From a virus (lineage: Duplodnaviria; Heunggongvirae; Uroviricota; Caudoviricetes): DNA of 64,000 bases. A program made the translations under genes and the position numbers. Below are positions 1 to 30,756 of this stretch, in pieces. Position 1 is the first letter of the stretch. Every line of letters begins with the position of its first letter. The notes beneath the pieces were generated by a model, which saw only the letters and a list, made by a program, of their open reading frames with translations, was not told the origin of the DNA and did no database searches. The stretch covers positions 1 to 64,000 of the IMG/VR virus record IMGVR_UViG_2936390555_000003; one strand, given 5' to 3'.

Positions 1-993
1 CTATTTGTAGGTCGGTAGCACATTAATAGCTTCAATAAGTTGCTCTTTGGTCTTATGCGTGTATACTGAATCATCTACGTCACTCCCTGCATGACCGATT
101 ATTCTTTGAATGATAACCTTGTTCACGTTAGCGTTGTTCAGCATGGTCTCGCATGTATGTCTTCCGTCATGCGGTGTATGCTTTTGGAGACATGGTATTC
201 CGCTATTCTTCCAGCGGTGCTCCCTAAAATTTGACGTTGACATACTAACGAAAAGTTCCTTATCGCTCTGGTATCTCTGGATTATTGGCTTTATGGCATC
301 ATGAATAGGGATAACCCTGTCCTTCCCAGCTTTCGTTTTAATACCACCAATCATATAGTCCTCATGTATGTTAGAGTTTTTAAGGGTAAGCAATTCGCCA
401 ATTCTCATTCCGGTGAATATCAGTATCAGAGCCATGTCAGCTGTAAAGCCTCCTTCGTGTTGCCATAGTTCATGTATTTCTTCTGGAGAGAACGGGTAAT
501 GCAATGTTGACTTGTCTACAGCCTGGGGAGTTAAGGCATCCGCAAGGTTTGTTGAGGTATAGCTATTCATCATGGCAAACTTGTATAGCCCTTTGATTGC
601 TGCCTTTAAAACCTGGGATACCGATGGAGTAGTGCTATCCATTATCAATTGCAAATCATGTGCTGTCACATGTTTAAACTTGTGCCTGTGTAATGGAGTT
701 AGTTTTCTGAGCGATGCCTTATATGATGCTGAGATATCCTTTGAAGATGCCTTGTAATCCAGGAACTCCTGAACTACTTCGCCGAATGTCTTCTTGTTGC
801 CAGCAAGATACTGTGGTTCACGGTGGTATATAGCGAGGGCATCCAATCCTTCCTGGCGTGTCCTATAGTAGCCTATAGGTTCCCTGTCCACCTTGCCTTC
901 TGCGTTGATGCCATGCGATACCACAACTATCCACGGCTTCCTGCGCTTGCCTGAGAGCTTATAGACACTTCCGTATCCATTAGGTAATCTCAT
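1..993 (-). CDS. int: phage tyrosine integrase
   Basis: 330-aa ORF with catalytic-domain motifs (FTGMRIGELLTL Arg box; HDGRHTCET H-x-x-R; GHAGSDVDDSVYTH with the Tyr nucleophile). Sits beside the Xis-like and repressor genes. Its stop codon is TAG (cta at 1-3). Confidence 0.9.
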   Translation of the reverse strand: MRLPNGYGSVYKLSGKRRKPWIVVVSHGINAEGKVDREPIGYYRTRQEGLDALAIYHREPQYLAGNKKTFGEVVQEFLDYKASSKDISASYKASLRKLTPLHRHKFKHVTAHDLQLIMDSTTPSVSQVLKAAIKGLYKFAMMNSYTSTNLADALTPQAVDKSTLHYPFSPEEIHELWQHEGGFTADMALILIFTGMRIGELLTLKNSNIHEDYMIGGIKTKAGKDRVIPIHDAIKPIIQRYQSDKELFVSMSTSNFREHRWKNSGIPCLQKHTPHDGRHTCETMLNNANVNKVIIQRIIGHAGSDVDDSVYTHKTKEQLIEAINVLPTYK

Positions 994-1038
994 GATTAAT
1001 CGCCTCCCAAAAAATCTAAAAATTTTTCATGGTTATCC

Positions 1039-1067
1039 TTGACCATACATGTAATATAATGTATCAT
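1039..1067 (+). promoter_or_regulatory. sigma70-like promoter driving the xis-like gene: -35 TTGACC (1039-1044), 17-nt spacer, -10 TATCAT (1062-1067)
   Basis: Consensus-like hexamers with 17-nt spacing, about 35 nt upstream of the RBS of ORF 1102. Confidence 0.35.
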
Positions 1068-1080
1068 GTATATAGTCAAC
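1061..1080. promoter_or_regulatory. operator-like 20-mer GTATCATGTATATAGTCAAC (copy 1)
   Basis: Near-identical copy at 1569-1588 (TGTATCATATATGTAGTCAC). Both copies overlap the -10 elements of the two rightward promoters that flank the repressor gene. Confidence 0.35.
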
Positions 1081-1101
1081 AGGGCGAAAGGAGGTGTAAA
1101 T

Positions 1102-1287
1102 ATGAAGATTTCAATAGACTATGCCGCTCACCAAATGGGAGTGAGTCCATCGTTTCTCCGGGCAGGATTGCAACGAGGGGCTTTCCCATTTGGCACAGCG
1201 TACAAGAATGATAACCGGTGGAGCTACTATATTTTCCCAGCTAAGTTCCAGGAGTATATAGGCTCCGCATGTCCTCAAGGAATTTGA
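1102..1287 (+). CDS. small HTH DNA-binding protein, excisionase (Xis)-like
   Basis: RBS AAAGGAGGTG 7 nt before ATG 1102. 61 aa with an HTH-like MGVSPSFLRAGLQRG segment. Lies between int and the repressor. Its 3' end overlaps the repressor 3' end convergently by ~47 nt. Confidence 0.5.
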   Translation: MKISIDYAAHQMGVSPSFLRAGLQRGAFPFGTAYKNDNRWSYYIFPAKFQEYIGSACPQGI

Positions 1288-1528
1288 CCATGAGGTCAAG
1301 CTCTTCTTTGGAGAAACGTTTCGCTAAATGCAGGGACTCAACATTTCTTCCCATCATATGGTCAACGGAAACCTTGAGTTCATTTGCAGTCTTCTCGATA
1401 GTAGACCACTTTGGGTCACCTTCTCCATTTTCCAACCTCTGGATGGCTGGGAGAGACACGCCAACCCTGTAAGCAAGGTCTCTCTGGGACAGTCCCTGGG
1501 CTTCACGAAGTTCTCTAATTTTTCTCAT
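1241..1528 (-). CDS. XRE-family HTH repressor (cI-like)
   Basis: Canonical XRE HTH (QGLSQRDLAYRVGVSLPAIQRLENGE). RBS GGAAAGGAGTG upstream of ATG at 1528 (internal Met of listed ORF 1241..1588). Transcribed divergently from the early operon. Confidence 0.8.
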   Translation of the reverse strand: MRKIRELREAQGLSQRDLAYRVGVSLPAIQRLENGEGDPKWSTIEKTANELKVSVDHMMGRNVESLHLAKRFSKEELDLMVKFLEDMRSLYTPGT

Positions 1529-1547
1529 AAAAATTTCACTCCTTTCC

Positions 1548-1576
1548 TTGACTACACTTATGACATGTTGTATCAT
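1548..1576 (+). promoter_or_regulatory. early rightward promoter (PR-like): -35 TTGACT (1548-1553), 17-nt spacer, -10 TATCAT (1571-1576)
   Basis: Perfect spacing, immediately upstream of the early operon. Overlapped by operator-like repeat copy 2 (1569-1588). Confidence 0.45.
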
Positions 1577-1610
1577 ATATGTAGTCACTGAGGTAAACTT
1601 CTATAGATAC

Positions 1611-1619
1611 ATTATAGCA
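1611..1619 (-). promoter_or_regulatory. extended -10 (TGcTATAAT on minus strand) candidate promoter for the repressor gene
   Basis: Reverse complement of attatagca gives TGCTATAAT, about 85 nt upstream of the repressor start and divergent from PR. Confidence 0.3.
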
Positions 1620-1673
1620 CAGTTTGTCAAGGGTGAAAAGCAGTTTTTTAAAAATTTTTTAGGAGGTCATATC

Positions 1674-2270
1674 ATGGCAAAGATTATCAAGAAGTCGTTT
1701 GACAACAAGGTTACTCCGAAGGGATTAGCCAAGTGGGTAAAAGTAAACTCCAGGTACGATGAATACGAGGGTAAGAAGAAGTACACTGTAACCCTGCGGT
1801 TCCCGAACAAGGACGATGAGGCTCGCATGAAGAAGTTCTGTGATGATACCTTGGCAGAAGCAAAGAAACTGTCTGAGTTCGAGGGGCGTACATGGAGAAG
1901 CGGTGATGACCTGCGCAATGGCTATACCGTAAACGAGGATGGCTCTCTGGACTTCAAGTTCCAGACCGCAGCATTCTATACCGACAAGGATACCGGTGAG
2001 CTGGTTCAGAAGTTCATCCCTGTATTCAATGTAGCAACCCAGTCAAAACTGCCACACGATGTAAGCATTGGTGATAACTCTGAATTGCGCATTGCATTCA
2101 TGCCGATGGCATATTGGATGACCAAAGACTCAAACGGTGTGAATCTGTACATTAACAAGATTGTCGTTGATAAACTGATTGAGTTCGGCGGTAGTGATGA
2201 TTTCAGTGAGTTCGGTATTGAGATGCCGGTGAGAGAGCCTGGCCTCGATGAGGAGGACGTTCCAATCTGA
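1674..2270 (+). CDS. first early-operon protein; possible phage ssDNA-binding protein (DUF2815-like, tentative)
   Basis: RBS TTAGGAGGTCAT before ATG 1674 (internal Met of ORF 1548..2270). Acidic C-terminus. Followed by primase-helicase and a PD-(D/E)XK-like nuclease, as in DUF2815/DUF2800 replication modules. Confidence 0.55.
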   Translation: MAKIIKKSFDNKVTPKGLAKWVKVNSRYDEYEGKKKYTVTLRFPNKDDEARMKKFCDDTLAEAKKLSEFEGRTWRSGDDLRNGYTVNEDGSLDFKFQTAAFYTDKDTGELVQKFIPVFNVATQSKLPHDVSIGDNSELRIAFMPMAYWMTKDSNGVNLYINKIVVDKLIEFGGSDDFSEFGIEMPVREPGLDEEDVPI

Positions 2271-2563
2271 TGAAAAGCTGGGATGACTGCAATAAGCCTC
2301 ACAGGCTGGCAAAGAAGTTCCTTGGAATAACAGGTGACTTCTCCAAGAAGAACTTCTTTGCTGTCTACAGCTTCTTTAAGAAGCAACAGGAGACCACTCT
2401 GAATCTGCTATATGAGTACCTTTGCTCCCTTGACGGGAAGCGAAAGATTACTATGGCAGACCTGTTTAAACAGGCGGATGAGTGGAACACGAGAAGCAAA
2501 GTAAAACACATAACTCATAGTAATGTTACTGATTATCTTGAGTTATTAGGAGGTACACGATGA
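2270..2563 (+). CDS. hypothetical protein (97 aa)
   Basis: ATG overlaps the upstream stop (TGATG). Same-strand operon context. Confidence 0.55.
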   Translation: MKSWDDCNKPHRLAKKFLGITGDFSKKNFFAVYSFFKKQQETTLNLLYEYLCSLDGKRKITMADLFKQADEWNTRSKVKHITHSNVTDYLELLGGTR

Positions 2564-2757
2564 AAGATTTCATAGGGGTTCCAAGGGTGAAGTTGAAAGA
2601 CTTCTATAAGATGGTGAAGGCTAAGGCACAGGCTGAGGCTGAGGAGCACAGGAAAGCGAGGAAGGCAAGGCATGAAGCTCAGAACGCTGATGATGACGAT
2701 GGTTCTGGTTCTGAGCCAAAGCGTGAACGCATCCGCACCAGGGCACGTTTACAGTGA
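2560..2757 (+). CDS. hypothetical small charged protein (65 aa)
   Basis: RBS GGAGGTACACG before ATG 2560. Its 3' third overlaps the start of the 3D-domain gene in another frame, so its true extent is uncertain. Confidence 0.4.
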   Translation: MKDFIGVPRVKLKDFYKMVKAKAQAEAEEHRKARKARHEAQNADDDDGSGSEPKRERIRTRARLQ

Positions 2758-3085
2758 CCTTTCTTTTTGTCGCCCCAAAGACATTATAGAAGATGTAAAA
2801 CCAACTGTAAGATACATAGCAAATGTATCATGGTATACAGCTTCTGACGATGAATGTGGAAAGTCAGATGGAATCACTGCGAGCGGTGAGCAAGCGGTTG
2901 CCGGAATTACGGTGGCCGCTGATGACCTTCCGCTGGGTACAAGAGTCCGCATTAACGGTCATGAATACATCGTTCATGACAGGTTTGGCGGTGGGTATAA
3001 AGGGCGCATAGATATTTATTGTGAAAGTAAAGAGGAGGCATTTGCTAACGGTAGGCAAATGCTAGAAGTGGAGGTACTGGAATAA
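2672..3085 (+). CDS. secreted 3D-domain (MltA/YocH-like) protein
   Basis: N-terminal signal-peptide-like MKLRTLMMTMVLVLSQSVNASA. 3D-domain motifs WYTASDDECGKSDGITASG...GITVAADDLPLGTRVRINGHEYIVHDRFGGGYKGRIDIY. RBS GAGGAAGG upstream. Confidence 0.6.
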   Translation: MKLRTLMMTMVLVLSQSVNASAPGHVYSDLSFCRPKDIIEDVKPTVRYIANVSWYTASDDECGKSDGITASGEQAVAGITVAADDLPLGTRVRINGHEYIVHDRFGGGYKGRIDIYCESKEEAFANGRQMLEVEVLE

Positions 3086-3279
3086 TGGACAATATAAGAG
3101 CAAAGATATTTATTGAAGCAGATGAAGCAGGTACAAAGGTTGAAGTTAATGGTGCCCCATCTATTATCATGTTCTTCCTTGGTCAGGTCATAGTTGACAT
3201 ATCGAAAACATCTGATGTACCACTGGAGGACATACGTGAGATGCTTGCAAAGTCTATTCAAGTATGGTCTGAGGATTAA
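3085..3279 (+). CDS. hypothetical protein (64 aa)
   Basis: ATG overlaps the upstream stop (TAATG). Operon context. Confidence 0.5.
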   Translation: MDNIRAKIFIEADEAGTKVEVNGAPSIIMFFLGQVIVDISKTSDVPLEDIREMLAKSIQVWSED

Positions 3280-3298
3280 TTGTGAGAGGACATGACAC

Positions 3299-5284
3299 AT
3301 GAATGTTAATAGCTTACTAAGGAAAAGCCTGGTGGAATATATTCCGGAGGCGCAATTGCATAGCGATGGGACATATCGGTGCGCATGTCCTATTCATAAC
3401 GGTGATAACCCAACGTCATTCACTATCTTTCCACAGGAGAATACATTCCATTGCTTCTCCTGTGGAGCCCATGGCAACATCATTAACTTTGTCATGGAGC
3501 GTGACAGCGTATGCTTCGACACCGCAGTCAAAACCCTCTGTGATGATTTCGGTGTTGAGATTGATGATCCGAAGTACAAGGAGCAGCTTGATATTACCCA
3601 GCGTAATGCAAGGTGGGCAGTGGGTATGCAGAGACAGCTCCCACGCATCATTGATTACCTGCACAAGCGCGGGCTGACCGATGAATCCATCAAGACATTT
3701 GGTCTTGGGTACAGCGAAAAGCTACAGGCTCTTTCGATTCCCATGTACGACACCTGGGGCCGGTGTGTGGCATTTCTCTATAGATACTTTGACCAGATGC
3801 CTAAGTACAAGAACAGCAAGAATATAGATGGACTCTTTGTTAAGGGTAAGTTCTTGTATGGCCTTCCACAGGCACAGCGGTTCCTGCGCAAGACGAAGAC
3901 TCTCATGCTTTGCGAGGGAGCCATGGATGCCATCAGTGCAATCCAGCAGGAGAACTGCTGTGTAGCCTACTGTGGTATCAGTGTTGGCAAGGCTCACATC
4001 GAGCAGATAAAGGAAGTCATTAAGCCAATTGGTGCCAAGGTTGTCCTGTGTCCTGACAATGATGGCAAGGCTGGCAAGTTTGTTCTGAGAGCCCGTGACT
4101 TATTCATGAAGCAAGCACCGGACACGGTTGTCAAAGTAGCCGTGATACCTGATGGGGCAAAGGACTTCAACGACATGCTTGTCCAGGGCATGGATATAGC
4201 CAACGATTGCAAGTATGAATCCGTGGACTTGTACTGTGTAAAGCAGATTGTAGCCAATGAGCCCGACAGGGATATGCAGGAAAAGCAAGTGGTCGCTTTC
4301 ATGTGTACCGTGAGGAACCCTTTGACTCGTGCTGATATAGCTGAATATCTTGCTGACGTATGGGAGCGCGATGTAGCTCTGGTTCGTGAGTTATTCAATA
4401 TCAAGCAGGATACAGCCGAGGAACAAATCAAGGACATCATGACAGTGGACGTTGGGTATCAGAGGCTGGAACATAAGAAGGTCGAGGAAACCTTCGGAGT
4501 TGGCTTTGATAACATCGACAATACCATTCAGTTCACAAGGAAGAATGTGGTTATCCTTGGAGCGTACAGTGGTTCTGGCAAGACTACCATGTTAGCCGAG
4601 TGGATATTGCACTGGTGCATCAAGTGCCACAAGAAAGTCCTGTTCTTCTCACTGGAGATGCCAGTGGAAGACATAATGAAAATCCTCATATCCAAGATTG
4701 TGCAGATACAGCAGTTCAAGGTATACGAGTATATCAAGGAGCGTCCTGATACCTATGAGCTAATCATGGATGCCCTGAAGAAATACCTGTTCATCGTGGA
4801 CAAGAACTACTTATCCTTTGATGATATGGGAAACTACATCAAGCTCCTGGCCTCACGCGATATTATGGTTGACATAGTAGCCGTGGATTACTTCCAGTAC
4901 ATGCAGGGCACTGACACGCTGGAAGGGCAGGAGAATACAGCGAAGAACATGAAAGCCTTCGCAAAAGAGAATAACGTGACATTGTTCATGCTTTCACAGC
5001 TCAATAAGGGAAGTCAAAAGGATGGCAGCGGAAAATTCAGAGAGCCGGTGCAGACTGACCTCATGGGCTCAGGTGCTATAGGCAATTCAGGTGATTACGT
5101 GGTTGCTATATGGAGACCAGCGCAGGTTCCTGGCTTATCACCGATTGACCGTGAGCATGTGAAGTACGACACGATGTTCAAGATAATCAAGGCTCGCGAG
5201 GTAAGAAGTGGTGACATCATATTTAATCTGGTGTACAACCCTGATACCTCACGATTAATGGAAAAGATTGGAGAGACAGTATAA
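3299..5284 (+). CDS. bifunctional DNA primase / DnaB-family replicative helicase
   Basis: N-terminal zinc-binding CHC2 motif (CACPIHNGDNPTSFTIF...FHCFSCGAHGN). TOPRIM motifs (LMLCEGAMDAISA...VLCPDNDGKAGK). C-terminal Walker A GAYSGSGKTT and DnaB-like VDYFQYM. Confidence 0.9.
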   Translation: MNVNSLLRKSLVEYIPEAQLHSDGTYRCACPIHNGDNPTSFTIFPQENTFHCFSCGAHGNIINFVMERDSVCFDTAVKTLCDDFGVEIDDPKYKEQLDITQRNARWAVGMQRQLPRIIDYLHKRGLTDESIKTFGLGYSEKLQALSIPMYDTWGRCVAFLYRYFDQMPKYKNSKNIDGLFVKGKFLYGLPQAQRFLRKTKTLMLCEGAMDAISAIQQENCCVAYCGISVGKAHIEQIKEVIKPIGAKVVLCPDNDGKAGKFVLRARDLFMKQAPDTVVKVAVIPDGAKDFNDMLVQGMDIANDCKYESVDLYCVKQIVANEPDRDMQEKQVVAFMCTVRNPLTRADIAEYLADVWERDVALVRELFNIKQDTAEEQIKDIMTVDVGYQRLEHKKVEETFGVGFDNIDNTIQFTRKNVVILGAYSGSGKTTMLAEWILHWCIKCHKKVLFFSLEMPVEDIMKILISKIVQIQQFKVYEYIKERPDTYELIMDALKKYLFIVDKNYLSFDDMGNYIKLLASRDIMVDIVAVDYFQYMQGTDTLEGQENTAKNMKAFAKENNVTLFMLSQLNKGSQKDGSGKFREPVQTDLMGSGAIGNSGDYVVAIWRPAQVPGLSPIDREHVKYDTMFKIIKAREVRSGDIIFNLVYNPDTSRLMEKIGETV

Positions 5285-6129
5285 TGCCAGCGATAGGTTT
5301 TAAATGTCCTAATGGGGACAAGGTTACATTCGAGCAGTGCTTTGCAGGGTGTGACCATCAGTGCATGAGCTTACCTGCACTCAAGGCTACATCGCAACCA
5401 CATTGGTTCGGTAAGCCAAGTGTTACCCAGCTCTTAGCACCGACACGCATCATGTACCTACAGATTATGAATGACTTCTACCTGAATCCGCACGGTAGCA
5501 TAGCAGCCATGATTGGCACATCAATGCACGCCATCATGGAAGACAATTGTCCCGATGGATGGATAATGGAGAAGCGTTTGGAAGATGACATTACATCGGG
5601 AGCCTTCGATGCCTACGATGCGACAACGAAAACCCTGTATGACTTCAAGAACTATGGAGCCTACAAGGTATCGCAGGTACTTGGCTACAAGGCTCGCTGG
5701 GTAAAGCGTACAGTTACCAGGGGAAAGCACGCTGGCGAAGAACGCTGGGAGCAGAAGTTTGAACCTGGTGGCGTGAGGCATGTGCATGACGTAGCATTAC
5801 AGATGAATTACTACCGCATCCTCATGGGGAAGCATGGGTATCCGGTGGAGAAAATGATGGTTCAGGTGTTTGTCCGCGGTGGTCTGGATAAGACAGCGAA
5901 AAGCTATGGAGTTACCCAGCCGACATACCTTGTGCCCATCAATCCAATATCAGACCGATGGGTGCGGAGGTACTTCGAGATGAAGTATAAGAAGCTCATG
6001 GATGCCGTGGAGAGCGGTGTCGTGCCGGAGGTATGCAAGCCGGTGGAGCGATGGAATGACCGCAGATGCAAGGACTTCTGCGAGGTTAATGAGTTGTGTC
6101 CATATTACCAGAAGAACTACATGGTGTAA
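5284..6129 (+). CDS. Cas4/RecB-like PD-(D/E)XK nuclease with Cys clusters (DUF2800-like, tentative)
   Basis: N-terminal C-x10-C-x3-C-x3-C and C-terminal C-x10-C-x3-C-x5-C clusters around a central region with nuclease-like acidic/lysine motifs. Position after primase-helicase typical of phage replication modules. Confidence 0.5.
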   Translation: MPAIGFKCPNGDKVTFEQCFAGCDHQCMSLPALKATSQPHWFGKPSVTQLLAPTRIMYLQIMNDFYLNPHGSIAAMIGTSMHAIMEDNCPDGWIMEKRLEDDITSGAFDAYDATTKTLYDFKNYGAYKVSQVLGYKARWVKRTVTRGKHAGEERWEQKFEPGGVRHVHDVALQMNYYRILMGKHGYPVEKMMVQVFVRGGLDKTAKSYGVTQPTYLVPINPISDRWVRRYFEMKYKKLMDAVESGVVPEVCKPVERWNDRRCKDFCEVNELCPYYQKNYMV

Positions 6130-6142
6130 GGAGGAAGAACAA

Positions 6143-23678: not shown

Positions 23679-23680
23679 AC

Positions 23681-25255
23681 TTATGCCCTCCCTAAAGTTT
23701 CACGGCTTACCCGTGGGAAACACTCAGGACAAAGACCATCCCTAAGAGTGCTCAACGGATAGGCATCGTCACATTCTTTGCATTCCGAGAATCTGCTGTT
23801 ATAACAGTATTCACATACTGTTATACTGCTACCATCATGGTCGATTGCATCATGTGTCTCTTCCTTGTTACCATAGTTACTGCACCAGTCGCATTTTTCA
23901 TAGTTCTCGGCGCACTCATCGCATACCCTGCCAATTCCGGATAGGCATTGCGTCTGAGAACTGAATACATCTCTTTCACAGCAATTACATTCGACAACCT
24001 CTGAATCATAGCAAGCATCGCAAACTACCACCGATTCACCTGTTTCCAGGTCGTGGACTTCATTTCCATTTCCATGGTGGACAGCATCGCCACAGCAAAA
24101 GCAAATGTCATAACCCATATCTTCCAGGCAATCGTTGCAGTAGAGGTACTTATCGATTTCCTCGCCACACTTGAGACAAAGCCCTGCCTCGCCAGCAATG
24201 AAAGGACTTGCTGTTTCCATGTGAGATTTGAGTACAGATACTGTTGCTAAATTACTGAAATGCCACCAGTCAGCATATCCGCCGAATAATCCGTGCTCAT
24301 GTACCCAAGTTCTCCCCCATTGGCTTACTGTTTTCTTGGTCCAGAGATTTACCTCGCCCTCAAGGAGAGCAATTTCCCTCTGGACAAGGTCACGGTAAAG
24401 CCTGTACTCTTCCACCTCTGTATCAGTGCCTCCGTTGGTGGTATAGAGGCGAGACTGACACAAAACGCCATTCCCAGGCTCATACATGAAGAGCTGTCTT
24501 GTTGTCTTGCGGTTATTCAGCGTTTCCTTGTCGCTAGGGTCCGCCACGGTAAATGCGATGAATGTCACCGGGTCACGGGCATACCCAGTACATCCGTTGT
24601 TATACTGATATTCAGTGCATGTCAGGGAGTGGCATGAGGTGAGCATCTGTCCACGGTCATCTCCATGGGGGTTGCTCATAGTAAGAAAATGGGCTGGGTT
24701 CAAGCTGAGGAACAGCTTGTAGCTCAGCTTTCTGCTATTCATTTCATCTGCCACTTCTGCGAACTTCTTCTGGAACCATGAGCCTTTAGACTCATTGACG
24801 ATTCCAAGGCTCTTACATACTCCATGGAGTACGCGGGATAATTTCTTTCCTGGCCTCCATGCGTTTGGAGCGACCCTCTGTAATACTGGCAAGTGCTCGT
24901 TTTCATGACATGCAAAGAATCTTGCAATTTCAGCTATCTCACTAAGGCGAATGTCTTCTCCCACCTTTGCCTTCACAAGAAGGTCAACGACTCCCGAATA
25001 TACCATCCCAACAACTGGCTCATGGGTACGATTGCCATTCAATACAATCGCATCGAGTTCCTCGTCCCACGATGGGGACTTACGGAAGAGCTCACGGAGT
25101 CCCTGCTTTGCCATGGTACTGTCCTCCGCGAGCCGTTCGTAAAAAGGCTCGTCTGTGAGAATATGGTCATCAACATCGATATGTTCGTTGTAATCTATCA
25201 TGGCAAGGCGAATGTTCTGCTCTGCCATAGCAATTTTCTCTTCCATGCTAATCAT
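23681..25255 (-). CDS. large hypothetical protein (524 aa) with a C-terminal ~170-aa tail carrying more than 30 Cys in C-x-x-C / C-x-C pairs
   Basis: Single long ORF. The C-terminus is dense in CxxC (CLKCGEE...CNDCLED...CFCCGD...CDACYD...CNCCERD...CDECAEN...CDWCSNY...CEYCYN...CKECDD...CPEC). The N-terminal ~350 aa were not assigned to a family. Confidence 0.65.
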   Translation of the reverse strand: MISMEEKIAMAEQNIRLAMIDYNEHIDVDDHILTDEPFYERLAEDSTMAKQGLRELFRKSPSWDEELDAIVLNGNRTHEPVVGMVYSGVVDLLVKAKVGEDIRLSEIAEIARFFACHENEHLPVLQRVAPNAWRPGKKLSRVLHGVCKSLGIVNESKGSWFQKKFAEVADEMNSRKLSYKLFLSLNPAHFLTMSNPHGDDRGQMLTSCHSLTCTEYQYNNGCTGYARDPVTFIAFTVADPSDKETLNNRKTTRQLFMYEPGNGVLCQSRLYTTNGGTDTEVEEYRLYRDLVQREIALLEGEVNLWTKKTVSQWGRTWVHEHGLFGGYADWWHFSNLATVSVLKSHMETASPFIAGEAGLCLKCGEEIDKYLYCNDCLEDMGYDICFCCGDAVHHGNGNEVHDLETGESVVVCDACYDSEVVECNCCERDVFSSQTQCLSGIGRVCDECAENYEKCDWCSNYGNKEETHDAIDHDGSSITVCEYCYNSRFSECKECDDAYPLSTLRDGLCPECFPRVSRETLGRA

Positions 25256-25923
25256 TTTATTGCTCCTTTCTCCTTCATGGAGACAAAGCTGTCTCCACCG
25301 ATGATAATGTGGTCGAGCACGGAAATATTCATGATTTTTCCTACCTGAACCATGCGAGCGGTAACCTCAAGGTCCTCTTTGCTAGGCGTTGGGTCACCAC
25401 TTGGGTGATTGTGAACCAGGATAATCGAGGCTGCTCCTTTGATTATCGCTGGCCTAAAGACTTCCCGTGGGTGTACCACGGAAGCATCCAGGGAACCTAT
25501 TGAGATAGTTTCCCATGACAAGATATGATTCTTTACATTGAGCAGGATGATACAAAAATGCTCCCTGTTTTCATATTTCAGCCGTGAAGCTGCGTAATCC
25601 GCAGCATCCTCTGGACAGGTGATAATTTTGATATTCCTATTTTGTTGCCCCAGTCTCTTGGCGAGCTCCAGGAGAGCAAGTAGCTCCAGTGATTTCCCTT
25701 TCCCTATGCCAGGAAAGGATTCAAGATTAATATCCCTGAGCCCTGCGAGCCCATTTGCTTCCCTGAGTAATTCCTGAGCTACCTCGTAACCTGAAGTGGT
25801 GCTGGTATCTTTGATAAGCAGAGACAGGAGCTCTGCATTACTCAGAAACCCTGCCCCCAAATGCTTGAGCCTTGTGGATGGGCGTTCATCCACAGGCATT
25901 TCACGAACAAATATAGTCGCCAT
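25252..25923 (-). CDS. radC: RadC-like JAB/MPN-domain protein (UPF0758)
   Basis: JAMM motif VHNHPSGDPTPSKEDLEVT. Helix-hairpin-helix-like N-terminus. 223 aa. Confidence 0.85.
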   Translation of the reverse strand: MATIFVREMPVDERPSTRLKHLGAGFLSNAELLSLLIKDTSTTSGYEVAQELLREANGLAGLRDINLESFPGIGKGKSLELLALLELAKRLGQQNRNIKIITCPEDAADYAASRLKYENREHFCIILLNVKNHILSWETISIGSLDASVVHPREVFRPAIIKGAASIILVHNHPSGDPTPSKEDLEVTARMVQVGKIMNISVLDHIIIGGDSFVSMKEKGAIK

Positions 25924-26033
25924 TTTTCTCTCTCCTTTACCAAATTTTTCCTTTTTCCTAAGTAAAAACCAATAAAACTTTGAAACTCCAAAAATTTTCC
26001 TTTTTTTGTACAGGCTTTTAACCCAGGAAAGTC

Positions 26034-26258
26034 TTAGAATACGTCAACGATTAATACCGCTGACATAAACAAGAGCCCCATGATAAGCAACGCACTCGTT
26101 GCTATCCCAGTGTGTAACCCTAGAAGGATAACGCACCCCATGACCCCTAGAGCTATGTACTCCGCGAAATCATCGGGGTACTCTTCATATGCTGCACAGT
26201 AGGCAGCATAGAACGCAAGGGCAAGAATTGATATTATGAGAGTCCAGTCAATAAACAT
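26034..26258 (-). CDS. small membrane protein (74 aa, 2-3 TM)
   Basis: Hydrophobic segments IISILALAFYAAYCAAY, GVMGCVILLGLHTGIATSALLIMGLLFMSAVLIV. Confidence 0.5.
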   Translation of the reverse strand: MFIDWTLIISILALAFYAAYCAAYEEYPDDFAEYIALGVMGCVILLGLHTGIATSALLIMGLLFMSAVLIVDVF

Positions 26259-26584
26259 TAGAAATCCTCCTTTACAATGTCAACGCGGAGCACACGCTCC
26301 CATTTCTCAAACGGCATTTCCACAGAGCCATCGGGGAGAATAGTTCTCCCCATTTTCGCGGTAATCACAGGCTTATCCCCAGCAATCCGAAGGATGCCTG
26401 CAAGCAAATTCGGGGGAGCCACCACGGCAATAATGTCATGCGCCTCAATTTCCTGGGCTATATCCTGGGCGGACTGGATAGACTTGTTCACCTGGGTAAT
26501 ATCAACGTCACCCAGCTTATCCATGAGAGCCTGCATCTGTGCCACCTGCATGAGGTGGCGCGAAAACCATAATACTTTTGTCAT
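26258..26584 (-). CDS. hypothetical protein (108 aa; Rossmann-like pattern)
   Basis: Internal ATG (26584) with RBS GGGGAGAAAGTTGAGG. Confidence 0.5.
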   Translation of the reverse strand: MTKVLWFSRHLMQVAQMQALMDKLGDVDITQVNKSIQSAQDIAQEIEAHDIIAVVAPPNLLAGILRIAGDKPVITAKMGRTILPDGSVEMPFEKWERVLRVDIVKEDF

Positions 26585-26760
26585 AATGAACCTCAACTTT
26601 CTCCCCGTAACAAGTCGTACAAGTGTACTAAATCGAGCACACCGACATACCTTAAGCCGATAGGACAGCACAAAACTTATACTTGCTCATGCCAATTCAT
26701 GGGCAAAATAAAAGAGCCATACAAGTAAATCGCATGACTCCTCTGTTTGCCCATGACATA

Positions 26761-26964
26761 CTATAACCCCATCGCAAACTCTGTCAGCATGGCAATAATG
26801 GTAGCCTTGCTTGCACGGAATGGCAGGTGATACACAGGGAGCTGCCCTGCAACCGTGCCTCTACGATAGAATACATAGGTGGCTTGTGCCCCGCAACCGC
26901 GAAGCTCCACCTGATACCTCTTTATCTTAAGTATACTAGGCATAACTATTCCACTCCTTTGCAA
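26761..26964 (-). CDS. hypothetical small protein (67 aa), weak
   Basis: Only ORF in the minus-strand block that ends in TAG. No clear RBS. Confidence 0.3.
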   Translation of the reverse strand: MQRSGIVMPSILKIKRYQVELRGCGAQATYVFYRRGTVAGQLPVYHLPFRASKATIIAMLTEFAMGL

Positions 26965-26966
26965 TA

Positions 26967-27239
26967 TTAATTACCATACCTGGCTTCAAGCTGAAGACTG
27001 AGAAAAAGACGGATACGCCTTGGTACAGTAGGGTTGAGTATGGTTTCAACGAAATCAAGAATTACCTCGGCTTCCTTACGCTCCTTGCGATACAGTGGAC
27101 GCCGGTGCCCTTTGGTGCGCCCCTTAGTAAACCTACGTGGCTCAGTGAGCTTCCTGAGCAAACTAATGGCTTCCTGTGACTCAGGGCCACTAAAATGGTA
27201 CTCAACGAGAGTGCTTATGAGTAACTTTGTTTTGAGCAT
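26967..27239 (-). CDS. hypothetical basic protein (90 aa)
   Basis: Operon context. Arg/Lys-rich. Confidence 0.45.
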   Translation of the reverse strand: MLKTKLLISTLVEYHFSGPESQEAISLLRKLTEPRRFTKGRTKGHRRPLYRKERKEAEVILDFVETILNPTVPRRIRLFLSLQLEARYGN

Positions 27240-27245
27240 TGTTTT

Positions 27246-27629
27246 TCACCTCCTCCAGTAATTACGGTTCCAGGTGATGGCACCCCTGGCAACCTCGCCT
27301 ACACACAACTCGCCATAGGATGGCGTTTGCCCACCGCCTATGTAGTGCCTCTTATGGCTACGGTGGAGAAGCTTGTTTGTGTCGTATACCGCGACACCAT
27401 CGCTCCCCTTGTATTCCGGTGTACTCTTGATGGTAGCAGGGATAGGCGGCAACTCAAGGTTAATTCGCCCCTGAGTATCAATGAGCCACGATATATGCCG
27501 TTTGCCCCCACATGTAAACACGGCTATAGAGACGTTTTTCTCGTGGTCCCTATAGTGCTTGACGAACACGAGTGTGAACATGCCTTTTACAGTGAGCTTT
27601 TGCCCTGGCGTTAGGTCTTTGATATTCAT
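27246..27629 (-). CDS. hypothetical protein (127 aa)
   Basis: Internal ATG with RBS TGGAGGGCTACC (GGAGGG). Confidence 0.5.
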   Translation of the reverse strand: MNIKDLTPGQKLTVKGMFTLVFVKHYRDHEKNVSIAVFTCGGKRHISWLIDTQGRINLELPPIPATIKSTPEYKGSDGVAVYDTNKLLHRSHKRHYIGGGQTPSYGELCVGEVARGAITWNRNYWRR

Positions 27630-27715
27630 GGTAGCCCTCCAATTGCATAGTAAAAAAGCATAGTGTATAGTCACCATGCTTGTGAGACATAGTTTTGTGC
27701 GACACTATTTGCACG

Positions 27716-27750
27716 CATAAAAAAAGAGGCTAGGGAAAAATCCCTAGCAC
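27716..27750 (-). terminator. rho-independent terminator on the minus strand (CTAGGGA-TTTTT-TCCCTAG + U-rich tract)
   Basis: Hairpin 27731-27748. On the minus strand it is followed by CCTCTTTTTTTAT. Lies between the first and second genes of the minus-strand block. Confidence 0.45.
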
Positions 27751-27761
27751 TCTTGCAGGTA

Positions 27762-28201
27762 TCACAGACACAATTTATAAAAATAGCCGTCCTTGTCGTA
27801 CATAAAATTAGCACATGTGATAATATCTGCTTTCATAGTGTCGCCGTCAAACGTTGTAAAATCAACGGCATAACCACCAACCCCACTGCCTAGCGGATTA
27901 TGGGATATGGAAGCCCCATTTTTCGAGGCTTTCACATAAATTTTTTTAGCCGTATCACTATAAGCAATTTGTGTTTTAGTGATATAGCCTTGCATGGTGT
28001 ACGCTCTTACAATGTCAATATAAGTATTGGCAATAGTATTTTCTGTATACTCATTATCTTTAACAAGTATGCTGTCCTCGGGTATCTCGCCAAATTCCAT
28101 AGTCAACGCTGTTTTTGGAGCCCCCTGCATCTCATAGATACTATCTGTCAGCCTTGCCAACAATGCCTGTACATCTGCCACACTTGCCTTGCCTTTTGCC
28201 A
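27762..28201 (-). CDS. hypothetical protein (146 aa), first gene of the minus-strand block
   Basis: ATG (28201) with RBS GAAAGGTGG. Confidence 0.55.
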
Positions 28202-28708
28202 TGGTAAAGACCACCTTTCATTATATATAATTGTAAATGTGCTATCGCCCCTTGGCTTTTGCCTCAAGGCTTGCATATAAGGTATCATGAAATCCTATTT
28301 TCGCCTATGTATACATTAAAATATCGCTTTATAACCATAAAGCCAGGTATCAAGGATAGACCCCGGACCCCGTGCCACACAAGGGCTCCCAGGGTGCAAA
28401 AATTTTCACCAATGATAGCAAAAAAATTTATCTTCGCGCGGTATGACCCTCATATCCCGTGGCCACCAATTTTTCAAATGAAATCCCCCTCAAGCCCAGT
28501 AATATCAACGCTTCTCACTGTCATTCACCCACCGAAACACTATGTAATTCCCAGGCATCAAATGAAAAAACTCTGCTAACCCCAGTAATACCAAGGGGTG
28601 CAAGGCTCTGTACCAAAGCGAAACAATATTTTTATGGGACTAAAGTTTCATTTTTAAAAATTTGAAAATTTTTTTGGGAAACATGGAATATTATTGTGGG
28701 CTAAATAC

Positions 28709-29020
28709 ATTATATGTAGAACAGGTTTTTACGTTCTATCCTTTTCTCTTCTTTGTAAAGGAGCTGAGAAGGACATGGACTCATGAGGAAAACTTTGCGA
28801 ATCGTTAGTGTTGCATTTCCCAGTCTTTGACTTGCGACTCTTACTCATGTTGTTCATGGCTTTTTCAGAACTCGCCCATGAAGTACAGTGCAGCTTATGC
28901 TGTGAGATAGTAGTGGGAGCAACCCTATTAATCCGTCATTGGCATGGAGTGCTTCTTTAAAAGAGAAGAAAGTAGGGAATGAGGATACGACCGTCTGTGG
29001 GGGACTACAGGGGGTCAATG
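28709..29020 (+). ncRNA. candidate structured RNA / late-operon leader element, copy 1
   Basis: Shares with copy 2 (52813-53090) an ATTATATGTAGAAC box, a covarying closing helix (TTCTCTTCTTTG...AAAGAGAAGAAAG here; TTCTCTTTCTTTG...AAAGAGAAAGAAAG in copy 2), an exact 48-nt core (28871-28918) and a GGGGG-N5-GGGGG motif. Confidence 0.4.
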
Positions 29021-29500
29021 TTTAAACCATAGTTCTTATCATAGATATACATTGTATTACTATGATATATATGTATACTATGTATACAGTGTATTCGAGG
29101 GTAACTCATAACCTATGGTTCTTAACCATGGGACATCACCCCCTTGGGATAACGTTATTGTCCGATAGGACAATAAGTCACGAAGTGACTTTACCTTCTA
29201 TGGGATATATCGTACTAAGAATACGATAGTATTCCATGTAGCTCTATATGAACTATGGAGTTCCATAGAACATGAGTATATGATATACCATGAATAACTA
29301 TGACATACATGTATACTATGAATACCTTACTTACCTATAGATACTACATTGTATCTTTATGGAACTATATATTCTTTATAGTTCTATAGAAATGCAATGT
29401 ATATCATACATACAAATGTTTACAATTAATTACATTAAATTACAAACAATGTCATTAATTGTTTACATTGTTTACTATGTATTACATTGAATAACAATGT
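29021..29500. repeat. A+T-rich array of short palindromic/direct repeats (CATAG/CTATG, TTCTATAGAA, CTATGGAgTTCCATAG, TTACATTG)
   Basis: About 480 bp with dozens of CATAG-type motifs and several perfect palindromes. Directly upstream of the terS RBS. Confidence 0.6.
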
Positions 29501-29514
29501 AAAGGAGGTACATC

Positions 29515-30159
29515 ATGGCAAGAGGAAATCCAAATCCAAAACCATTAGCTCCAAGGAGGGGCAGTGCGACAAGTCCTCACATGGAAGCTCCAGGCAAGAG
29601 CATGATTCAGATATACAATCTGACTGGCATGGTAAGGGAAATGAGACTCAAAGGAAAAAGCTATAGAGCCATTGCTGATTACATTAATAGCAATAAGCTC
29701 ATACCAAATGGCTATGTCCTTTCTTATAACAGCGTGGTTCGCTGGTGTGCCAATAATGGCCTGGGCGGAACCATAGAAGCAACTTCTGATACTGAGGCCG
29801 TCAATACATACAATATCAATTGCAAGCTGTTAGCCATGTACCGCGAGGCACTTGATGGGTTGCAGCTCAGGCTCGATGAAGCCAATAGCAATCCTGGCGG
29901 TACAAAGATTTCTGAGTACAACAAGATTGTTGATGGCATAGCCAAGATGGGCTTTCAGATCCAGCAGCTCACAGCGAAAATCGGTGAGATGCAGGAGCAG
30001 GTCTATAGATATGAAACTGCTTCCAAGGTAATCGAAATCATCATGGCTAAAATAAGTGTCCTGCTTCCTCAAGAGGATTATGAGGAAATCAAGGCCAAGC
30101 TGAGGGACGACCCGATTCTCTGCGAGGCACTGAAGACAATCGCACCGAGCAACGTATGA
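29515..30159 (+). CDS. terS: terminase small subunit (HTH-containing), putative
   Basis: Strong RBS AAAGGAGGTACATC. HTH-like LKGKSYRAIADYINSN. Position immediately upstream of the terL region. No in-frame TAG. Confidence 0.55.
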   Translation: MARGNPNPKPLAPRRGSATSPHMEAPGKSMIQIYNLTGMVREMRLKGKSYRAIADYINSNKLIPNGYVLSYNSVVRWCANNGLGGTIEATSDTEAVNTYNINCKLLAMYREALDGLQLRLDEANSNPGGTKISEYNKIVDGIAKMGFQIQQLTAKIGEMQEQVYRYETASKVIEIIMAKISVLLPQEDYEEIKAKLRDDPILCEALKTIAPSNV

Positions 30160-30165
30160 GGAGGA

Positions 30166-30756
30166 ATGTGTATGCTATGGTTCATATTTTATCCGATGAA
30201 CCTGATGCTTTCCATATTGTGCTATCTCACAAATTGGTTGGCAGCGCTGTTCGCTGATGAGCGTGGTGAGCTTCATGGCTCATGGCTCTACTGGCAGACA
30301 TGGGATGATTCATTGGATGTGGAGTGGTTCGTGAAGGAAACTGTTCCCAAGATTTTCAGGTACGACTTTGACAAGCACTATGTCAGTACCAGGGAGGCTC
30401 CTGAGTACCTCAAGCACCTGGGCAGGGATAAAGGCGCTGTCAAATGCATTAATAATGAATTCACATTGAAGGAACGCATCCAGCGGTATTTCTGTCGAGT
30501 GCTTTGGCTGTACCGTAATAACGGTTATGGCTTTGCCTTCTACTGGTTTGGCAATGGGTGTGTTGGCAACCTGCTTGCAACCAGGAAATTCAAGTATGGT
30601 ACGCTGGTATACGATAGGTTCAATCCTATCTGGGGGCCATGGAAGCTGTCTGGCAAGATTGGCTGGTTTGAATTCCTTGCTGGCTGGAAACTTGCCACGG
30701 AATCCGGTGCCTTCAAATGGGCAATGATAACAGGAAGAATTTTGATTAGAAAGTAA
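30166..30756 (+). CDS. hypothetical Trp-rich membrane protein (196 aa)
   Basis: RBS GAGGAGGAATG. N-terminal hydrophobic segments. No in-frame TAG. Confidence 0.55.
   Translation: MCMLWFIFYPMNLMLSILCYLTNWLAALFADERGELHGSWLYWQTWDDSLDVEWFVKETVPKIFRYDFDKHYVSTREAPEYLKHLGRDKGAVKCINNEFTLKERIQRYFCRVLWLYRNNGYGFAFYWFGNGCVGNLLATRKFKYGTLVYDRFNPIWGPWKLSGKIGWFEFLAGWKLATESGAFKWAMITGRILIRK

Follow-up and report, generated by a model that had tools for sequence, protein, structure and literature searches.

Genome Organization

The analysed sequence, referred to below as the window, comprises 64,000 nucleotides of the IMG/VR record IMGVR_UViG_2936390555_000003. These bases cover ~84% of a temperate siphovirus-like phage of Selenomonadaceae, with a whole genome of ~76 kb. 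The likely host genus is Anaerovibrio, which was assigned through a relative at 87–89% identity and not from the window DNA itself. This relative (L002) is an integrated prophage within an Anaerovibrio MAG. Its flank contains eight intact host genes written in code 11, with zero sense TAG in ~2,800 codons, so the host probably uses the standard code, as had been proposed. The features of the window are listed in Table 1.

Table 1. Features of the window, with TAG sites and supporting evidence.
Feature	Position	Strand	Evidence
Tyrosine integrase, 330 aa, stop TAG at 1–3	1–993	−	PHROG_1, E = 1.4e-47
Xis-like small HTH protein, stop TGA	1102–1287	+	Ribosome-binding site; conserved in relatives
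XRE/CI-like repressor, 95 aa, stop TAG at 1241–1243	1241–1528	−	Pfam HTH_3, E = 4e-13
Early/replication block, no TAG as sense or stop	1674–13,958	+	PHROG matches, stop and TAG counts
Intron-like insert in RNR gene, ~209 nt, between NPC and AE of the active-site motif	10,101–10,309	+	Direct sequence reading
Minus-strand block, ~23 ORFs, mostly of unknown function, no in-frame TAG	14,462–28,214	−	ORF table, TAG counts
Second tyrosine recombinase, in minus-strand block	20,046–20,831	−	
Small conserved gene, 60 aa, genuine TAG stop	26,761–26,943	−	Ribosome-binding site; conserved in L005
Two TAG-free genes just 5' of tRNA: one of unknown function, one DUF7338	29,515–30,756	+	Pfam DUF7338, E = 6.5e-19
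Terminator-like hairpin occupying the whole DUF7338–tRNA gap	30,755–30,776	+	9-bp stem, then T-rich tail
Suppressor tRNA, anticodon CUA, class II, serine type	30,784–30,871	+	ARAGORN, Rfam, cloverleaf fold
tRNA-Lys(UUU)	31,033–31,107	+	ARAGORN, Rfam
Rha-like regulator with HNH endonuclease domain; TAG 32,399 in motif C-N-x-[TAG]-K	31,550–32,506	+	Pfam HNH spans TAG
Large terminase (TerL), TAG 32,640 (codon 45)	32,508–34,130	+	PHROG_38, E = 4e-102
Portal, putative scaffold, SU10-like major capsid protein; TAG-free	34,135–37,494	+	
Head–tail adaptor, TAG 38,072	37,724–38,284	+	Post-TAG C-terminal piece matches PHROG_442
Neck and tail proteins, TAGs 39,462 and 40,207; ORF 39,719–40,114 TAG-free	38,877–40,902	+	
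Small ORF, 92 aa, signal-peptide-like N-terminus, TAG 41,298, unknown function	41,190–41,468	+	TAG-sense ORF table
Giant tape-measure-like ORF, 7 in-frame TAGs	42,026–52,204	+	PHROG tape-measure matches
Tail tip: NlpC/P60 (53,693, 53,840), minor tail protein (54,105), hub (54,629, 55,034)	53,537–55,189	+	Pfam spans every TAG
gpJ-like central tail fibre, 6 in-frame TAGs	55,110–59,006	+	Pieces co-linear on PHROG_31; full-length homologs
Tail-fibre-like ORF (3 TAGs) and Mtd-like DGR target protein (TAGs 61,119, 61,455)	59,490–62,327	+	Pfam mtd_2nd spans 61,455
DGR reverse transcriptase (TAG 63,388) and downstream small ORF (TAG 63,836)	62,677–64,000	+	Pfam RVT_1

Bases 1–3 are CTA; therefore, the TAG stop of the integrase sits exactly at the edge of the window. 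The C-terminus of the protein is complete, with the catalytic tyrosine followed by 18 aa. The same stop, which had been noticed originally, was found in L002, L006 and the standard-code relative L013, and thus it looks ancestral rather than adaptive. The repressor, which was overlooked in the original list of TAG-ended genes, has its TAG stop in the window, L002 and L006, and divergent promoter-like sites are located near it at 1548–1576 (+) and 1639–1611 (−). No match for the Xis-like protein was found in the Pfam search.

The early block encodes a ssDNA annealing protein, peptidase, primase-helicase, exonuclease, kinase, RusA, split ribonucleotide reductase (RNR), ligase-like protein and dUTPase. 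The PHROG_84 match is divided between the two RNR ORFs, and no Rfam family was matched by the insert between them. The only TAG able to extend any early ORF (10,306) is located inside this insert and is therefore not exonic. The gene previously named terS was identified only as DUF7338, with no terminase small-subunit match in profile searches. Note that the count of sites like the terminator-like hairpin in the region was not above the shuffled expectation.

Distribution and Reading of TAG Codons

Upstream of the tRNA(CUA) gene, no in-frame TAG was found in ~8,700 codons of ~45 ORFs, versus 31 in ~9,900 codons of the late block (31.5–64 kb; ~3.1 per 1000 codons; Fisher P = 5e-9), where they are carried by 16 of the 24 ORFs. 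All 31 in-frame TAGs lie downstream of the tRNA gene. A tally of stops and in-frame TAGs per gene across the window confirmed the proposed sharp partition, and no early gene had an in-frame TAG. The partition is neither circular nor compositional, because early ORFs tile their region under the standard code with 85% density, off-frame TAGs are equally dense in the two halves (9–11 per 1000 in each block), and the early genes of two relatives contain zero in-frame TAG in 5864 and 3153 aligned codons. The same partition pattern was seen in relatives.

As stated in the original prediction, the stops of the plus-strand early genes are all TAA or TGA, and those of the minus-strand block are TAA or TGA (22 stops) with the single exception of 26,761. 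The latter had been described as the TAG stop of a weak 67-aa ORF; the stop was upheld, while the ORF proved to be a conserved gene. In the relative L005, the equivalent codon is TAA and is closely followed by a frame-breaking indel; this TAG is thereby identified as a true stop. In total, TAG terminates three of ~46 genes in the window, compared with 12% (24/201 genes) on average in standard-code relatives and 23% in the closest of them; this scarcity is not significant on its own against the 12% baseline (P = 0.18). The results support a requirement for TAG as a stop in two lysogeny genes, namely the integrase and the repressor. TAG had been proposed to function as a stop in both the lysogenic and early state, but no early gene uses it, so the early-state part of the claim has only three genes behind it, namely those for the integrase and repressor and a small third one.

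Sequence comparison shows that TAG is a sense codon in the late genes. Seven Pfam domains run through TAGs, including RVT_1, which covers residues 85–277 of the reverse transcriptase with TAG as residue 238, and the reading frames are kept across every TAG. The tape-measure region, with TAGs at positions 42,131, 42,524, 42,632, 44,348, 45,197, 48,206 and 48,266, appears under the standard code as four ORFs sharing one frame. In a relative with a complete circular genome, TAG is conserved at 20 of the 31 sites. The close relative IMGVR_UViG_3300045988_145964 contains sense codons at 11 window TAG sites, namely CAA, GGG, CAG and CAG at four tape-measure sites, CAG at the adaptor site 38,072 and at the reverse transcriptase site 63,388, and TCC at the Mtd site 61,119, among others; the reverse case was found at 61,320 (TCA in the window, TAG in the relative). 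The TAG at 41,298, counted among the 31, lies at a site unaligned in the close relative.

The claim that late genes need suppression holds for TerL, the HNH domain, the adaptor, the major-tail-like protein, the tape measure, the tail-tip proteins and the gpJ-like, Mtd-like and reverse transcriptase proteins. It does not hold for eight of the 24 late ORFs, namely the portal, putative scaffold and capsid genes (0 TAG in 1110 codons) and five others.

Possible Role and Origin of the Partition

The genome is probably written in two codes, with a serine-type suppressor tRNA heading the virion and DGR block. In the prophage state and early infection, host translation alone would operate and TAG would be a stop read by RF1; the TAG-free early, replication and minus-strand genes would be read in the same way with or without the suppressor. 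Expression of the tRNA(CUA) gene, which precedes the 33-kb block, may be restricted to the late phase, perhaps through transcription past the hairpin (30,755–30,776). The 31 TAGs downstream of this gene would be translated, most probably into serine. No complete TerL, HNH domain, adaptor, major-tail-like protein, tape measure, tail tip, gpJ, Mtd or reverse transcriptase would be formed before this tRNA has been produced and then aminoacylated by the SerRS of the host.

The role in lysis timing that had been suggested is not supported here, because the recoded block yielded neither a holin nor an endolysin: its NlpC/P60 protein is located among the tail proteins, and the TAG-free early block encodes an endolysin-like peptidase (2672–3085). 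Other elements of the original interpretation, namely TAG stops in lysogeny genes, late suppression, a serine tRNA and the host code, were retained. The gated functions would be DNA packaging and tail assembly, and the gate would be partial, since one third of the late ORFs, including those for the portal and capsid, are free of TAG.

It is quite possible, if somewhat short of probable, that the partition is passive and gives no regulatory benefit: TAGs would have drifted into genes translated when the suppressor tRNA is abundant, and selection would have purged them from earlier-translated and highly expressed genes. This explanation conflicts with none of the present observations, and the sequence by itself fits it and the gating model alike. 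TAG is missing from the late proteins of highest abundance (portal, putative scaffold and capsid) and dense in the low-copy tail proteins; TAGs are mostly at variable positions and turn over fast, with 11 of 31 sites differing from a relative at 90–94% identity. The recoding itself is recent, as judged from relatives at 58–75% amino-acid identity, which have zero in-frame TAG and lack tRNA(CUA). However, TAGs are kept at conserved serine positions in TerL and the HNH domain, so some sites are maintained.

A mosaic origin, in which a recoded late module was recombined onto a standard-code early and lysogeny module and ancestry, not selection within this genome, accounts for the partition, is unlikely. 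Phage genomes are mosaic, the identity to the relative ranges from 78% to 99% along the genome, and gpJ is less similar in the recoded contig L001 (57% identity) than in a standard-code contig (74%). However, the standard-code IMGVR_UViG_3300045988_151874 has both modules in common with the window, the early one (primase, 75%) and the late one (gpJ, 74%), and the partition boundary coincides exactly with the tRNA gene. In addition, the primase-helicase, exonuclease and peptidase genes end in TAG in the relatives at 58–75% identity and in TAA in the window, which suggests that the early module adapted to the suppressor.

Amino Acid Inserted at TAG

The tRNA(CUA) has a long variable arm, G73 and an encoded CCA. 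It aligned over its full length with genes of T4-like phages annotated as tRNA-Ser (77–78% identity); this alignment and the class II body uphold the predicted serine type. On further viral contigs, genes for tRNA(CUA) of this type (84–91 nt, long variable arm) adjoin tRNA-Ser(UGA) in tandem. A point against serine is the discriminator base of the relative's tRNA, which is U and not G. Since the anticodon is not read by SerRS, a tRNA-Ser body carrying the anticodon CUA inserts serine at UAG. E. coli supD is reportedly a tRNA-Ser with CGA changed to CUA, and psu1+ of phage T4 is said to derive from T4 tRNA-Ser; these are laboratory mutants that rescue nonsense alleles, whereas the gene described here is a fixed natural one serving dozens of essential codons.

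The tRNA type and the orthologous positions indicate that TAG is almost certainly read as serine and not as the published glutamine. At 15 sites, the nearest standard-code orthologs contained S (5), A (3), T (3), E (2), K (1), P (1) and Q (0). With the L010 ortholog used at 55,365 instead, the numbers became S 6 and A 2, and this version gave BLOSUM62 sums of 28 for S, 17 for T, 10 for A and −1 for Q. At the HNH site 32,399, serine was found in all eight standard-code orthologs, encoded by AGT or AGC, and such AGY codons are three mutations from TAG. At the TerL site 32,640, serine was found in eight of nine orthologs at ≥35% identity (threonine in one) and in eight of ten in the wider set. 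Standard-code orthologs had AAG at the adaptor site 38,072, serine (closest) or threonine at 40,207 and proline at 39,462. At the tail-tip sites 53,693, 53,840, 54,105, 54,629 and 55,034, the residues were T, S, E, S and T, respectively, and S and A dominate the gpJ TAG columns in homologs.

Ordinary code 15, as in the crAss-like, Lak, Garnet and Topaz phages, is quite unlikely; TAG would then be glutamine, after mischarging of the tRNA by GlnRS or GluRS/amidotransferase through its CUA anticodon. According to work cited by Borges et al. (bioRxiv 10.1101/2021.08.26.457843), amber suppressors become glutaminylated in E. coli, and public gene callers already render such proteins with Q; the Q at TAG in the database homologs stems from gene calling with code 15. 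Five of the 11 variable sites pair TAG with CAG (n = 4) or CAA (n = 1) in the close relative, which is the synonymous change expected if TAG is glutamine. However, frequent C-to-T transitions at tolerant sites also explain these pairs, and three TAG/TCN pairs, each differing by two nucleotides, were found as well. The absence of Q at the 15 ortholog sites, its BLOSUM62 sum, the serines at the HNH, TerL, 53,840 and 54,629 sites and a tRNA body that is not of the glutamine type all argue against this reading.

Finally, a decaying prophage with nonsense-broken late genes and no recoding would also show late genes fragmented under the standard code, but it was refuted: the interruptions are TAG in 31 of 31 cases and never TAA or TGA, the frames are preserved, a matching tRNA(CUA) is present and 20 of the TAGs are conserved in the complete circular relative.

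Comparison with Known Recoded Phages

Both the partition and the switch hypothesis belong to a previously published model: for the Garnet and Topaz prophages, late-gene recoding and a lysis/lysogeny switch were described by Borges et al. (bioRxiv 10.1101/2021.08.26.457843; later Nature Microbiology). The phage studied here shares with them TAGs concentrated in structural genes, standard-code replication genes, a phage-encoded suppressor tRNA, a standard-code Firmicutes-type host and close standard-code relatives. It differs in that the repressor also ends in TAG, no TAG-bearing lysis gene was found, and the genome is ~76 kb, compared with ~24 kb for the prophages analysed by those authors.

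The crAss-like and Lak phages with code 15, for which glutamine at TAG was found by MS/MS metaproteomics and no serine was reported (Peters et al. 2022, PMC9523058), also combine late and structural TAG read-through, tRNA(CUA) genes and standard-code hosts. However, they are virulent and infect Bacteroidota, whereas the one described here is a temperate phage of Selenomonadaceae. The phage phAss-1 (Phassvirus; PMC10607447) contains TAG in TerL, the tape measure, portal and tail fibre and encodes its own tRNA-Sup(CTA) genes; TAG in TerL, the tape measure and tail fibre and a phage-borne suppressor tRNA are common to both phages. In phAss-1, the TerL TAGs align with conserved glutamine and tRNAscan calls the tRNA Gln, whereas the TerL TAG here aligns with conserved serine.

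The novelty of the present phage is the identity of the amino acid. For phages differing in code from their host, Borges et al. (bioRxiv 10.1101/2021.08.26.457843) described only TAG-to-Gln and TGA-to-Trp changes, unlike the serine presumably delivered here by a class II tRNA. The arrangement may serve as a safeguard or a timing gate for virion production.

Genome organization

The window is most of the genome of a temperate tailed phage (see the table below). A lysogeny module is present, comprising the integrase, a CI-like repressor and a divergent early promoter region in which divergent promoter-like sites adjoin the repressor gene; an integrated copy is known in a bacterial genome (L002, an Anaerovibrio MAG contig with a related prophage). 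The minus-strand block, with a second tyrosine recombinase in its middle, may be a nested or once-separate mobile element. The original prediction mentioned a terS gene; the protein in question belongs to DUF7338, and no recognisable small terminase was found. When the early half and the late half were compared with GenBank phages by megablast, tRNA fragments were the only matches. Exact-match searches with the integrase and portal proteins gave no source contig.

Main features of the window
Feature	Position	Strand	Description
Tyrosine integrase gene	1–993	−	PHROG_1, E = 1.4e-47; TAG stop codon at bases 1–3
Small Xis-like gene	1102–1287	+	Beside the integrase gene
XRE/HTH_3 repressor gene	1241–1528	−	95 aa; Pfam, E = 4e-13; TAG stop codon
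Early block	1674–13958	+	ssDNA-annealing protein, primase-helicase, exonuclease, RusA, ribonucleotide reductase (RNR), ligase-like protein, dUTPase
RNR gene	9323–11724		Split by an insert
RNR insert	10101–10309		~209 nt
Minus-strand block	14462–28214	−	~23 ORFs, mostly without known function
Second tyrosine recombinase gene	20046–20831		Middle of the minus-strand block
First AT-rich gap	28580–29514		Non-coding; precedes the genes leading into the tRNA and late block
Two TAG-free genes	29515–30756		After the AT-rich repeat region; one encodes DUF7338
tRNA(CUA) gene	30784–30871	+	Anticodon CUA
tRNA-Lys gene	31033–31107		
Late block	up to 64000		Rha/HNH protein, TerL, portal, SU10-like capsid protein, adaptor, very large tape-measure ORF, tail tip (NlpC/P60, minor tail, hub, gpJ-like), Mtd-like protein, DGR reverse transcriptase
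Second AT-rich gap	52733–53536		Non-coding; inside the tail module
DGR	60882–63738		Complete-looking; Mtd-like target, variable region, template repeat, reverse transcriptase
DGR variable region	near 62190–62310		
DGR template repeat	near 62440–62560		

The RNR insert lies exactly inside the active-site motif NPC|AE: the first exon ends in ...SNP plus T, and the second begins with GT GCA GAA, so that NPCAE is restored. The insert ends in G at its 3' end, as expected of a group I intron; an Rfam search of the insert gave no family at E ≤ 1. Both AT-rich gaps contain arrays of related TGTATAC(T/C)ATG and ATACCATAG repeats, which may be regulator-binding or promoter arrays, and share an element of ~48 nt (at ~28.9 kb and 52958–53005). 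In the complete relative L006 (4574–9060, past the end of the window), the 12 kb from the DGR to the integrase encodes an anti-repressor, an RNA ligase and a DNA polymerase in two ORFs, and all of these genes are TAG-free. The N-terminus of the second polymerase ORF is extended by ~450 residues, which may be an intein or an insertion.

Distribution of in-frame TAG codons

According to the curated gene list, the ~45 ORFs located upstream of the tRNA(CUA) gene contain no in-frame TAG in ~8,700 codons, compared with 31 in ~9,900 codons of the late ORFs (Fisher P = 5e-9). All 31 interruptions of the late frames are TAG, and neither TAA nor TGA occurs in frame. Recoding is thus biased to structural and late genes, and the genes for replication and the integrase follow the standard code. 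The tabulation per gene bore out the claim that the plus-strand early genes stop with TAA or TGA and lack in-frame TAG; no clearly early gene with an in-frame TAG, the observation that was to count against this claim, was found.

The partition result is not circular, because the early ORFs cover their region at a density of 85% when read in the standard code, their family matches span the expected profile ranges, and the off-frame TAG density is 9–11 per 1000 in all blocks. The only TAG able to extend an early ORF (position 10306) falls within the RNR insert. In the early genes of the relatives, the stops within protein alignments were TAA only and were located 5' of the true starts. In-frame TAGs that appeared in these genes in a codon-wise nucleotide map were rejected as the product of over-extended N-termini and an alignment artefact. 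Recoded and standard loci could not be told apart by the summed length of long ORFs under alternative sets of stop codons.

Translation of sixteen late ORFs depends on the decoding of TAG, and the lysogeny genes require TAG for termination, while every gene upstream of the tRNA reads alike with or without the suppressor. The other 8 of the 24 late ORFs are TAG-free, including those for the portal, the putative scaffold and the capsid protein. It had been proposed that the late structural, lysis and DGR reverse transcriptase proteins all require suppression. This is the case for DNA packaging (TerL codon 45), head completion, the whole tail and the DGR, but not for the portal, putative scaffold and capsid proteins. 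As to lysis, neither a holin nor an endolysin was identified among the genes with TAG codons: NlpC/P60 belongs to the tail module, and the TAG-free early block encodes the peptidase that gave endolysin-like matches. Note that both the target gene and the reverse transcriptase gene of the DGR contain in-frame TAGs.

TAG as a stop codon

TAG terminates three of the ~46 non-late genes, two of which are classic lysogeny genes. The original prediction restricted this use to the integrase and to a weak 67-aa ORF ending at 26761 in a minus-strand block otherwise terminated by TAA or TGA. The integrase stop and the minus-strand pattern were confirmed. The ORF, in turn, proved to be a conserved gene of 60 aa with a real TAG stop (a relative has TAA at this codon and an indel just 3' of it), and the XRE repressor gene also ends in TAG, in the window as well as in the two close relatives.

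The scarcity of TAG stops is not significant by itself: TAG makes up 12% (24/201) of stops in standard-code relatives (P = 0.18 versus the window). In the closest standard-code relative its share reaches 23%, and the primase-helicase, exonuclease and peptidase genes end in TAG there and in TAA in the window. This relative shares the integrase TAG stop, which lies within a TGTTAG(C/T)A repeat array adjoining the attachment site and is most readily explained as a tolerated ancestral feature. The array directly follows the integrase stop in L002 (10991–11060), in L006 (4391–4440) and in the standard-code relative L013 (~1100–1135), and its repeats, next to the attachment site, probably represent arm-type sites of the integrase. 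It yields an in-frame 'TAG TGT TAG TAG'. A tandem-stop safeguard was rejected as the main reading of this run because its TAGs are part of the attachment-site array, which the standard-code relative has too.

Late TAGs as sense codons

Several lines of evidence indicate that the late TAGs are translated. Pfam domains (HNH, two hub domains, Mtd_2nd, RVT_1, NLPC_P60 and Phage_min_tail) span TAG codons, the gpJ pieces match consecutive stretches of a single PHROG profile, and the tape measure consists of four successive ORFs in one shared frame. The close relative IMGVR_UViG_3300045988_145964 (complete, circular, 76.6 kb, 80–99% identical to the window) keeps 20 of the window TAGs. The two genomes differ at 11 sites, with the sense codon in the relative at nine and in the window at two, and these sites join the flanking reading frames.

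Full-length versions of the late proteins were found in public protein databases, where Q stands at the TAG positions, the gene calling having been done under code 15 (TAG read as Gln). The correspondence was confirmed codon by codon on the recoded contig L001 (980–5101). The two database homologues examined, P0001 and P0003 from Logan assemblies, are such translations with TAG as Q, one of them checked codon-wise (14 Q residues of P0003 are TAG in the DNA). Standard-code homologues mostly have S or A at these positions, and several TAG-derived Q residues of P0003 fall in columns with Ser or Ala in other homologues.

The +4 base after the sense TAGs corresponds to the background. The −1 base is A at 17 of the 31 window sites, versus a background of 19% (P = 1e-5); this excess was not repeated in L001 (9/24, P = 0.15).

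Suppressor tRNA(CUA)

A suppressor tRNA matching the recoded codon is encoded both in the window and in the close relative. It is an 88-nt class II tRNA with a 5-bp variable-arm stem, encoded CCA and G73 as the discriminator base (U in the relative's copy). The gene aligns end to end with tRNA-Ser genes of T4-like phages at 77–78% identity, and the nearest annotated genes are tRNA-Ser. It lacks the features of a glutamine-type tRNA (class I, short variable loop). The sole separator of the tRNA gene from the upstream gene is a terminator-like hairpin (30755–30776), and such sites are not more frequent than in shuffled sequences.

A pattern search (the same CUA anticodon arm and T-arm with a long spacer between) revealed the same tRNA type in 19 further IMG/VR contigs (within L025–L044). 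ARAGORN predicted a long-arm tRNA(CUA) of 84–91 nt in 17 of the 19, and in the other two the match was cut at the end of the stretch examined. In several of these contigs, the immediate neighbour of tRNA(CUA) is a very similar tRNA-Ser(UGA). Coding density rises at several of the loci with TAG as sense, e.g., an intein-containing GroEL in L036; no decisive residue was found at TAG in this recoded GroEL. Serine-type amber suppressors may be widespread in phages.

Amino acid assignment

In order to assign the amino acid, the TAG sites were compared with standard-code orthologues (TerL at 58–71% identity, gpJ at 67–77% nucleotide identity) that have neither in-frame TAG in the aligned late genes nor a tRNA(CUA). 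At conserved sites, Ser is invariant or dominant. The TAG at 32399, in the HNH motif, corresponds to Ser in 8/8 orthologues, encoded by AGT or AGC, three mutations from TAG. At 32640 in TerL, Ser occurs in 8/9 orthologues of at least 35% identity and Thr in 1/9. The closest orthologue has Ser at 40207, where the others have Thr. Ser is also found at 53840 and 54629, Ala or Ser at 55365, Thr at 53693, 55034 and 55782, and Ala at 55911 and 57624. The residue is Glu at 54105 and 56349, Lys at 38072 and Pro at 39462. Gln was found at none of the 15 sites in these orthologues. BLOSUM62 scores summed over the sites were 28 for Ser, 17 for Thr, 10 for Ala and −1 for Gln. Deeper gpJ homologue columns agree with the orthologue residues, and in a second recoded contig a TAG falls in a column with Ser in 110 of 118 homologues.

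One observation runs counter to serine: 5 of the 11 variable sites are TAG/CAG or TAG/CAA pairs between the window and the close relative. We attribute these pairs to recurrent C-to-T changes where substitutions are tolerated, CAG being a common codon in the late genes (322 occurrences). Three TAG/TCN pairs with the same relative, two mutations apart each, point away from Gln. Taken together, TAG very probably encodes serine in this phage.

Host of the lineage

The original prediction of a standard-code host agrees with the contig L002, which was obtained from a MAG of Anaerovibrio sp. (Selenomonadaceae, Negativicutes). Its prophage is 87–89% identical to positions 8–11222 of the window, and homology to the circular relative ends right after the integrase terminator hairpin, with host genes beyond (ZnuA-like, LarA, CbiMQO, phospho-beta-glucosidase and PTS components). 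The eight flanking host genes are all intact when read with code 11 and contain no in-frame TAG in ~2,800 codons; none of the eight ends in TAG. The gene content of this relative's contig supports a standard-code host for the lineage.

Comparison with known recoded phages

TAG-recoded prophages in standard-code hosts have already been described, as have integrases that lack in-frame TAG and use the recoded codon as their stop, standard-code replication genes and close standard-code relatives (Borges et al., bioRxiv 10.1101/2021.08.26.457843). Like those phages, the window contains conserved genes with recoded stops and continuing frames, a suppressor tRNA and a late bias. Enrichment of recoded stops in lysis genes is a further mark of that class; the recoded block of the window yielded neither a holin nor an endolysin. 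Among phages with a code unlike that of the host, only TAG-to-Gln and TGA-to-Trp changes were observed (Borges et al., bioRxiv 10.1101/2021.08.26.457843), and other reports of phage TAG recoding also assign Gln (PMC10607447, PMC9523058). Under code 15, TAGs would be expected to align with conserved Gln and the tRNA to be of the Gln type; the window shows neither. The literature searched gave no instance of a natural TAG-to-Ser code in phages. The window departs from published recoded phages in the probable amino acid, and the partition itself repeats the published pattern, of which this prophage is one more clean two-code example.

Possible role of the partition

The observation behind the original prediction was confirmed, and its interpretation is partly supported. 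The idea of a lysis/lysogeny switch comes from Borges et al. (bioRxiv 10.1101/2021.08.26.457843), and such a mechanism, already published as a hypothesis, appears plausible. The tRNA(CUA) would be charged by host SerRS, whose identity rules disregard the anticodon, and made with, or just ahead of, the late transcripts, and the arrangement would keep the virion genes silent in the lysogen and in early infection. An equally good fit is given by a passive scenario, in which TAG accumulates by drift in late genes of low copy number and is removed from other genes. The TAG-free capsid and portal genes and the quick turnover of TAG sites favour some cost-avoidance role.

A stronger proposal is that this temperate Negativicutes lineage has a recent natural TAG-to-Ser code in which TAG is purposely dual-use, as a lysogeny stop and as virion Ser. 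Turning on this one tRNA-Ser(CUA) gene would permit virion assembly and, by read-through, add junk C-termini of at least 55 aa to the repressor and up to ~270 aa to the integrase, which would commit the cell to lysis. The finding of tRNA(CUA) genes of serine type in 18 or more further IMG/VR contigs suggests that the code itself is widespread. We consider this full proposal unlikely.

Since a single tRNA gene lies at the boundary, the gating hypothesis is directly testable. The lineage is useful as a test system, being a small, recent case with standard-code relatives at 58–75% amino-acid identity and a known likely host genus. The serine assignment merits an experimental check. If TAG is read as Ser, code-15 pipelines and gene callers put the wrong residue, Gln, into the late proteins. 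The notion that recoding relies on co-opted anticodon-sensitive synthetases would fail here, since SerRS is indifferent to the anticodon, and stop recoding in phages would extend beyond TAG to Gln and TGA to Trp.
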